From assembly GCF_003334355.1 (NCBI RefSeq), contig NZ_QOWP01000025.1: a DNA stretch of 57,529 nt. The stretch is one strand, 5' to 3'. The translations under genes were made by a program, and so were the position numbers. Below the pieces are notes generated by a model. The model had not been told where the DNA came from. It searched no databases and saw only the letters and a program-made list of their open reading frames with translations. Positions 5,262 through 6,744 of the stretch are shown here, piece after piece. This DNA comes from Escherichia coli (GTDB lineage: Bacteria > Pseudomonadota > Gammaproteobacteria > Enterobacterales > Enterobacteriaceae). Positions within the stretch are counted from its first letter, which is position 1; the number at the start of each line of letters is the position of its first letter.

Positions 5262-6129
5262 TTATTGCACGAAGCGCGAGGTAACGTACTGGCTGTAATC
5301 ATTCGCTACAGCCGGGACCTTGCCCTGCTCTTTCAAAAACTGCGCGGTGTCGATGATCGCTTTGTTCACCGGTCCGGTCAGTTCTGCCGTTTGTTGCTGC
5401 GGCGTCAGATAGGTATTCCCCTTCACCAGCCCCGGAACGTCACCTTCAGGCACGCCGCTTAACCGCGCCAGTTTGCTGATGTTTTCCGGCTGTTTCAGCC
5501 ACGCGTCTGGGTTAGCAATGTACGGTTGCTGAGCATCGATGGCGCTTTTGGCGAACGCTTTCACGACCTCAGGATGTTTCTCGGCAAAATCTTTGCGCAC
5601 CACCCAGACGTCCAGTGTCGGCGCGCCCCACTGCCCGACCTGTTCCGAATCGGTCAGCACCTTGCCGTCTTTTTCCAGGGCGTTAACCGCCGGTGCCCAG
5701 ACATAAGCACCATCAATATCTCCCCGCTGCCATGCGGCGATAATCGCGGGCGGCTATGCGTTTGCCAATCAGATCTTCCGGTTTGCTGATAGTTTTCTTT
5801 ACCACCAGCGCTTCGGAGTTACCCAGTTTTGACGCCAGCAAGAAAACTTCAATCGGCACCTGTTGGCTGGCTGCAACCGCTAACGGGCTGGAACCGAGGT
5901 TGCCGATTTGCACATCGCCAGAAGCCAGCGCCCGCACGATGCTGGCTCCGCTGTCAAACTTACGCCAGTCCACGGTTGCTCCGCTTTCTTTAGCAAAGGT
6001 GTTGTCGGCCTGAGCCACTTTCGCCGGTTCGGCTGAGGTTTGATACGCCACGGTGACGTTCACCGCCTGTGCCTGAAAAGCGATGAATGCCAGTGCGGCA
6101 AGAAGTGTGTTACGCGATGAAATTGCCAT
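5262..6129 (-). pseudogene. tauA: Taurine ABC transporter periplasmic binding protein, disrupted by a ~95-bp internal deletion and frameshift
   Basis: N-terminal part (ORF 5713-6186, MAISSRNTLLAALAFIAFQAQA ... KRIA) and C-terminal part (ORF 5262-5660, LTDSEQVGQWGAPTLDVWVV ...) are in different frames; the span is 868 bp, not a multiple of 3; about 32 codons of recalled TauA are missing between KRIA and AIIAAWQRGDIDG. Confidence 0.8.
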
Positions 6130-6744
6130 GATTGTCTGCTCCCCTGTCTTGTTATGGGAGCAGTATTCAGGAATAAAAACATTCATTAAAAGAATTAGTC
6201 GTTATCGCACAGATGATTTTATTCTTAGCAAAAAAACGGCTAAGGAAAGATTAAATATGCAATTACTCCGTTCTAACAATTGGGAAAATTACTACACTTC
6301 ATTTTAGTGATGCATAAACAACCACATTACGAGATTTATTACTTCATTATTTCTATCAATATCAATACATATAATAAAACTATTATATTCGCATTGTATA
6401 TATCACTGTATCATTCTCAATCACTCGCATATTACATTCACATAATGTATATAAACAATACTTGTTCACAGAACATATTTTTTAAATGCAATTAATTGAC
6501 AAACTAAATCACATCTAAATACAATGTATAAAACAAAATAACTATACATACCAAACATACAAACACTTAACATATGAATTGCATAAAAACATTACCCAGT
6601 CGAACCTCTGGGTCTGAAAGCCCTTGCTTTTCAGTTATTAGCAACATTTAACATTTATAAATTAACATCTGGCTGCGCCAGAGATTACGTCTCTGAGTGC
6701 ATCGTTGTGCTTGTAGTATAATAAATAAAATGGAGTGTCATTAA

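Follow-up and report, generated by a model that had tools for sequence, protein, structure and literature searches.

A 95-bp deletion between AGCCG direct repeats in tauA and the probable loss of taurine uptake in a clone of Escherichia coli

The tauABCD locus and the lesion in tauA

The window, by which we mean the whole 57,529-nucleotide stretch of DNA that was analysed, is a segment of the Escherichia coli chromosome in which the list of open reading frames (ORFs), compared with annotated genomes, gives the order ehaB-hemB-tauDCBA-yaiS-yaiP-...-frm-mhp-lac-cyn-cod-prp-.... The genes of the tau operon are encoded on the minus strand (Table 1), and tauA, the first gene of tauABCD, which codes for the periplasmic taurine-binding protein serving the TauABC importer, sits in the context expected of it, with tauB, tauC and tauD following downstream on the same strand. 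TauB (255 aa), TauC (275 aa) and TauD (283 aa) are each identical to their counterparts in strain PSS-12, in keeping with the sequence-only reading of this DNA, which had described tauBCD as intact; the tau promoter region is likewise unaltered relative to PSS-12. A Shine-Dalgarno sequence of tauB's own, AAGGAGG, is found at 5255-5261, and translation of tauB is consequently independent of that of tauA.

Two ORFs cover tauA. One, at 5713-6186, encodes 157 aa when read from the first upstream ATG and 138 aa when read from the annotated MAISS start (6129); the other, at 5262-5660, encodes 132 aa. Of the span of 5262-6186 first proposed for the gene, the lower end stands, whereas the upper end does not, as 6186 is the first ATG of the maximal ORF and the gene itself begins at 6129. 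The extent given for the pseudogene in Table 1 is based on alignment with the tauA genes of strains E41 and PSS-12 together with matches to the NCBIfam profile NF008553.

Table 1. Positions of the tau genes and of the features associated with the tauA deletion in the window.
Feature	Position	Strand	Remarks
tauD (taurine dioxygenase), intact	2810..3661	-	protein identical to PSS-12 WP_000004027.1
tauC (permease), intact	3658..4485	-	protein identical to PSS-12 WP_000114586.1
tauB (ATP-binding subunit), intact	4482..5249	-	protein identical to PSS-12 WP_000939399.1
tauA pseudogene	5262..6129	-	868 bp against 963 bp when intact; begins at the annotated MAISS... start and ends with the TAA stop of the intact gene
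Stranded C-terminal frame	5262..5750	-	TauA codons 159-320 and stop
N-terminal fragment ORF	5713..6129	-	TauA residues 1-126, 12 out-of-frame codons (5716-5751) and TGA (5713-5715)
Sigma-70-like promoter motif (candidate)	5740..5768	-	TTGGCA (5768-5763), 17-nt spacer containing the junction, GATTAT (5745-5740)
Deletion junction, single AGCCG copy kept	5751..5755	- (plus strand CGGCT)	95 bp missing here

Relative to E41 and PSS-12, the tauA of the window lacks exactly 95 bp, corresponding to gene nucleotides 375-469 or, equivalently, 380-474. Alignment with the intact E41 gene requires a single gap of this length, and the window is 100% identical to E41 on both sides of it, with no other difference anywhere in the aligned stretch. 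The minus strand over the junction reads ...ggcaaacgcatAGCCGcccgcgattatcgcc..., and the reading of tauA across the deletion is ...gattggcaaacgcatAGCCGcccgcgattatcgccgcatggcagcggggagatattgatgg.... In the intact E41 allele the segment corresponding to the gap is bounded on both sides by AGCCG, as in CGCAT[AGCCGTACCG...CCTGC]AGCCGCCCGC; that is, the E41 arrangement CGCAT-AGCCG-TACCG...CCTGC-AGCCG-CCCGC is represented in the window by CGCAT-AGCCG-CCCGC. The two direct repeats are 95 bp apart in the intact allele, and both E41 and PSS-12 carry the pair. Since the bases adjoining the repeats differ from one another (T/C before, T/C after), the microhomology is exactly 5 bp.

Because 95 is not a multiple of three, the reading frame of tauA is broken. 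The N-terminal frame follows the reference TauA through residue 126 (..GKRIA), continues for 12 foreign codons (ARDYRRMAAGRY) and then reaches a stop, and a second frame takes up the reference again at residue 159 (PAIIAAWQRGDIDG...) and follows it to its stop; codons 127-158, 32 in all, are lost. The resulting N-terminal fragment of 138 aa comprises the signal peptide (residues 1-22), part of domain I and the start of domain II. The earliest possible start in the C-terminal frame is a GTG at 5660, which yields the 132-aa ORF already mentioned, without a signal peptide. These results sharpen what the sequence-only reading had proposed, namely a tauA split into two frames by the loss of about 95 bp and some 32 codons at a 5-bp AGCCG microhomology, with the junction at plus-strand ~5745-5755, an interval within which the retained repeat does fall; pairwise alignment with a reference tauA, which that reading had recommended as the means of defining the deletion, did so. 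Programmed frameshifting can be dismissed, as 32 codons, among them one for a ligand-binding residue, are physically absent. A naturally short allele that remains in frame is likewise excluded, given that 95 is not divisible by three and that this length occurs in no other genome.

Several further features of the window are recorded here for completeness. Immediately beside tauA, at 6745-7416, a yaiS-like PIG-L deacetylase ORF runs continuously for 223 aa in both the window and the Logan gene calls (PF02585), and the same stretch in E41 and PSS-12 is annotated in RefSeq as a partial pseudogene "missing C-terminus" together with a 39-aa hypothetical protein on the opposite strand. Over this stretch the window matches PSS-12 exactly, and its one difference from E41, at 6609, lies upstream of the ORF; the discrepancy has the look of inconsistent annotation and not of a lesion. 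At 31749-32351, a 200-bp unit is present in 3.0 tandem copies of 98% identity, one unit more than in PSS-12; the array begins 84 bp before the cynR stop (the cynR ORF ends at 31832), enters the cynR-codA spacer with its REP-like sequence, and is a copy-number-variable duplication of the 3' end of cynR. Approximately 15 kb between prpD and yahD (38439-53676) is present in the window and absent from the otherwise near-identical PSS-12, which has a truncated prpD and an IS1 where the flanks meet. The window itself closes with 180 bases (57350-57529) of an IS1 end, 97.8% identical to one IS1 copy of PSS-12, which suggests that an IS1 insertion beside pdeL interrupts the contig from which it came. 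Finally, four matches to the REP-derived Rfam family naRNA4 (14563-14638, 35057-35133, 39907-39978 and 49664-49733) and two tandem REP/BIME-like arrays with a period of 93 bp (39851-40136 and 49615-49788) are ordinary E. coli intergenic repeats.

Authenticity and origin of the deletion

When the tauA region was compared by megablast with 5,426 complete E. coli genomes, 5,420 were matched, and all of the full-length matches listed came in two pieces that together span 1,146 bases against the 1,051 bases of the query, an excess of 95. A 45-mer spanning the junction, designed so that a megablast match could be seeded only with both of its halves present, found no counterpart in any of the 5,426 genomes. 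The possibility, raised in the earlier reading, that the shorter length might be a normal allele shared by many strains therefore fails. Similarly, a junction 35-mer had no match among the GTDB species representative genomes and none among JGI metagenome contigs, and the allele is accordingly a rare one.

The absence of the junction from every complete genome, along with the fact that the window seemingly derives from a draft-type contig ending in an IS1 fragment, might be taken to indicate that the deletion is an artefact of sequencing or assembly and that the true genome carries an intact tauA. Against this stands the recovery of the exact 138-aa product, together with the junction, on contigs assembled independently from at least nine public sequencing runs belonging to three accession series (Logan carriers include SRR27314501, ERR4578542 and ERR1948964), as well as the record of the same product from an NCBI assembly. 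Moreover, the loss of 95 bp from unique, non-repetitive coding sequence is atypical of assembler error. We consider an artefact so improbable as to be negligible; the 95-bp deletion is genuine and is common to a small clone.

The relationships among carriers and non-carriers bear on when and how often the deletion arose. Two of the Logan contigs (L003 and L004) agree with the window at every position (100% identity) in alignments of 6,417 and 4,075 bases that take in the deletion, and a third (L002) shows three differences from the window, all of them private to it, a pattern that fits a single origin. The nearest complete genome, that of PSS-12 (isolated from human faeces in Ecuador), has an intact tauA, and its mismatches with the window number one over 5.7 kb towards tauBCD-hemB and eight over 26 kb in the opposite direction; over the 6.4 kb around the tau operon, the window and PSS-12 are the same apart from the deletion. 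Within the operon, E41 and PSS-12 are separated from the window by 0-1 SNPs, and both encode a TauA of 320 aa. That the closest complete genomes are nearly identical and yet retain tauA indicates that the deletion is recent.

The anatomy of the junction is informative with regard to mechanism. Of the distinct deletions of 20-300 bp that are possible in tauA, only 0.15% (0.7% when counted by placement) would be bounded by a microhomology of 5 bp or more, and the repeat at the junction thus exceeds what is expected by chance for random breakpoints. Both flanks align without an extra or changed base, and the junction contains neither filler DNA nor any remnant of a mobile element; an IS-mediated deletion is ruled out, as no IS sequence is found there. 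Direct repeats of which one copy is kept, joined without filler, are classically what a slipped-strand or microhomology-mediated deletion produces, and from this anatomy the most likely course of events would be a single 95-bp deletion between the two AGCCG repeats on a PSS-12/E41-like E. coli chromosome, probably through replication slippage or another form of microhomology-mediated illegitimate recombination that left one repeat copy behind. Slippage is not the sole mechanism that gives short-microhomology junctions, and 5 bp is a short repeat. Indeed, when set beside the classical short-direct-repeat deletions of E. coli, in which two ancestral repeats likewise become one and the interval between them is lost, the tauA case is the same in kind, falling at the short end of the range in repeat length and having no hairpin between its repeats. 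Folded as single-stranded DNA, the intact 120-nt interval showed no hairpin joining the repeats beyond what shuffled sequence provides, and since its stability is no better than that of shuffled sequence (z = +1.3), structure-assisted slippage is unsupported.

The 5-bp microhomology is itself a minority allele. The A of AGCCG (window position 5755, tauA nucleotide 375) is a synonymous third-position variant (Ile125, ATA), and the other strains sampled mostly have C or T at this nucleotide, which leaves only 4 bp of homology (GCCG). An exact 33-mer containing the A matched 103 of the 5,426 complete genomes, a figure that is a lower bound because further SNPs within the 33-mer would also prevent a match, and the deletion is found in 0 of these 103. 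This observation weighs on the proposal that the deletion is a recurrent event at a hotspot, having arisen several times at the AGCCG repeats rather than once in a clone. Such repeats do make the deletion mechanistically repeatable, and L002, with its three SNPs in 6.4 kb, is about as far from the window as is the deletion-free PSS-12. However, the L002 differences are all private, the other carriers are identical to the window, and no complete genome with the 5-bp-repeat allele has undergone the deletion. We accordingly regard recurrence as highly unlikely, and a single origin of the tauA deletion as the simplest reading.

Consequences for TauA, taurine uptake and tauBCD

The structure of E. 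coli TauA provides a framework in which to consider the effect of the lesion. Domain I of the protein is formed by residues 23-104 and 202-319 and domain II by residues 105-201, and taurine is contacted by Gln30, Gly61, Gly79, Glu106, Thr132 and Asp205; replacement of Thr132 alone (T132A) raises the Kd from 1.6 nM to 20.6 uM, an approximately 10,000-fold weakening of taurine binding (PMC6906117). In the window, the N-terminal fragment retains Gln30, Gly61, Gly79 and Glu106, whereas Thr132 falls within the deleted segment and Asp205 is encoded only in the untranslated frame. This fragment amounts to about one third of the fold, ending before the greater part of domain II and having nothing of the C-terminal half of domain I. 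With Thr132 deleted, and with half of both domains taken out by the frameshift, TauA is non-functional.

Profile matching gives a concordant picture. The two fragments match NCBIfam NF008553 in different frames with 256.7 bits (profile positions 1-127) and 345.7 bits (159-320), as compared with 698 bits for the intact PSS-12 protein, and both fall short of the 490-bit equivalog cut-off that applies to a whole TauA protein; the locus is thus tauA by descent and encodes no full member of the family. Intact E. coli TauA (NF008553/TIGR01729; PDB 6SSY, 6ST0, 6ST1 and 6STL) occupies the same locus in the same tauABCD-hemB context, and differs from the allele of the window in possessing residues 127-158, Thr132 among them, and in having residues 159-320 translated in continuity with the rest. 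The cell would be expected to make at most an exported fragment of 138 aa without Thr132 and Asp205, and might in addition make a cytoplasmic C-terminal fragment without a signal peptide; judged by what they contain, neither could be a working binding protein. Given that the gene is intact in the close relatives PSS-12 and E41 and bears a disabling lesion here, the locus corresponds to what is termed a unitary pseudogene. Taken together, we are confident that tauA in the window is a real, recent and clone-restricted loss-of-function pseudogene produced by one 95-bp deletion between AGCCG repeats, through which taurine uptake has probably been lost.

What this loss would mean for the cell can be predicted from published tau mutants. 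Disruption of tauABC abolishes the use of taurine, and the Ssu system takes up alkanesulfonates with the exception of taurine, although some substrates are common to the Tau and Ssu systems (PMC6906117). In the clone described here, TauBC would lack the binding protein that hands it substrate, and uptake of taurine for sulfur should fail during starvation for sulfate or cysteine. The most likely phenotype, by analogy with those mutants, would be a loss of taurine-sulfur use with the use of other sulfonates unaffected. The earlier suggestion that taurine could not be used unless another binding protein substitutes agrees with this literature. Hybrid Tau/Ssu transporters are reportedly non-functional.

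It may be argued that the deletion, although real, is without phenotype, taurine reaching the cell through TauBC paired with a substitute binding protein, by some other transporter, or with help from the fragments. The substrates shared between the Tau and Ssu systems could be cited in favor of such a view, as could the unaltered state of tauBCD and of the tau promoter region. Yet Ssu excludes the one substrate in question, the disruption of tauABC was sufficient to abolish taurine use, and the hybrid transporters are said not to have worked; nor do the fragments appear suited to assist, the N-terminal one lacking Thr132 and Asp205 and the C-terminal frame lacking a signal peptide. A silent deletion therefore seems very improbable to us, and we retain the loss of taurine-sulfur use as the expected phenotype.

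Two possible effects on the expression of tauBCD deserve mention. Some 450 nt of the message, from the premature stop (5713) to tauB, are no longer translated, and this may lower tauBCD expression through Rho-dependent polarity, a suggestion that is speculative. The second concerns a sigma-70-like motif, facing tauBCD, whose spacer contains the junction (Table 1). The motif matches 9 of 12 consensus positions and is known from this consensus match only. It exists solely through the deletion, as the hexamer at equal spacing in the intact allele (by alignment with E41) is TTTATC, which does not qualify. Nevertheless, the 1.5-kb region yielded four sigma-70-like sites where chance alone would give 2.5, and the junction motif, which is weak evidence, could well be a chance match. 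It is very doubtful that the deletion rewires regulation by way of a new sigma-70 promoter that would transcribe tauBCD independently of CysB/Cbl and of sulfate starvation. Were this the case, constitutive TauD could desulfonate substrates imported by SsuABC, and the allele would be more than a simple loss. The junction motif is the only mildly new point about this allele and the only route beyond simple loss.

The deletion among other losses of tauA

Inactivation of tauA is by no means confined to this clone. The 132-aa C-terminal ORF, which arises when tauA is interrupted upstream of codon 189, was found on 285 contigs and appears in 391 index blocks. Ten public loci sampled from these (L007-L016) carry other, independent lesions at gene nucleotides 431-553, each of which leaves the 132-aa C-terminal ORF and none of which is the 95-bp deletion. 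They comprise nonsense mutations (C469T, G494A and C496T), a 155-bp insertion and 1-bp deletions (at 431, 475, 551 and elsewhere), and some of the latter, occurring in long single-contig assemblies, may be long-read sequencing errors. As in the window, what remains of tauA in these alleles is an N-terminal fragment and the 132-aa C-terminal ORF, with tauB and tauC intact downstream; at one of the loci (L009), tauB is also shortened (171 aa).

Loss can also extend to the entire locus. The tauA region is without any match in 6 of the 5,426 complete genomes. In ST131, late wound isolates from a chronic infection have undergone a 31.9-kb lacY-iraP deletion in which tauA-D were lost (bioRxiv 10.1101/2022.05.07.487787). 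When the literature was searched for E. coli tauA pseudogenes, this whole-locus deletion was the only case to emerge. In such natural isolates the taurine pathway is gone, with the difference that the window loses the binding-protein gene only and keeps tauBCD.

The many independent tauA lesions in public assemblies make the allele of the window an ordinary pseudogene and tauA inactivation a recurrent event. Indeed, the allele is new only as an allele, as nothing in the gene, the way it was mutated or the outcome to be expected departs from the textbook, and it has little importance beyond the description of a strain. Within that scope, the 95-bp deletion offers a clean PCR marker for one E. 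coli clone, and it predicts for that clone an auxotrophy-like trait, the inability to use taurine as a sulfur source. Considered together, the tauA lesions suggest that the scavenging of sulfur from taurine is dispensable for many E. coli lineages.
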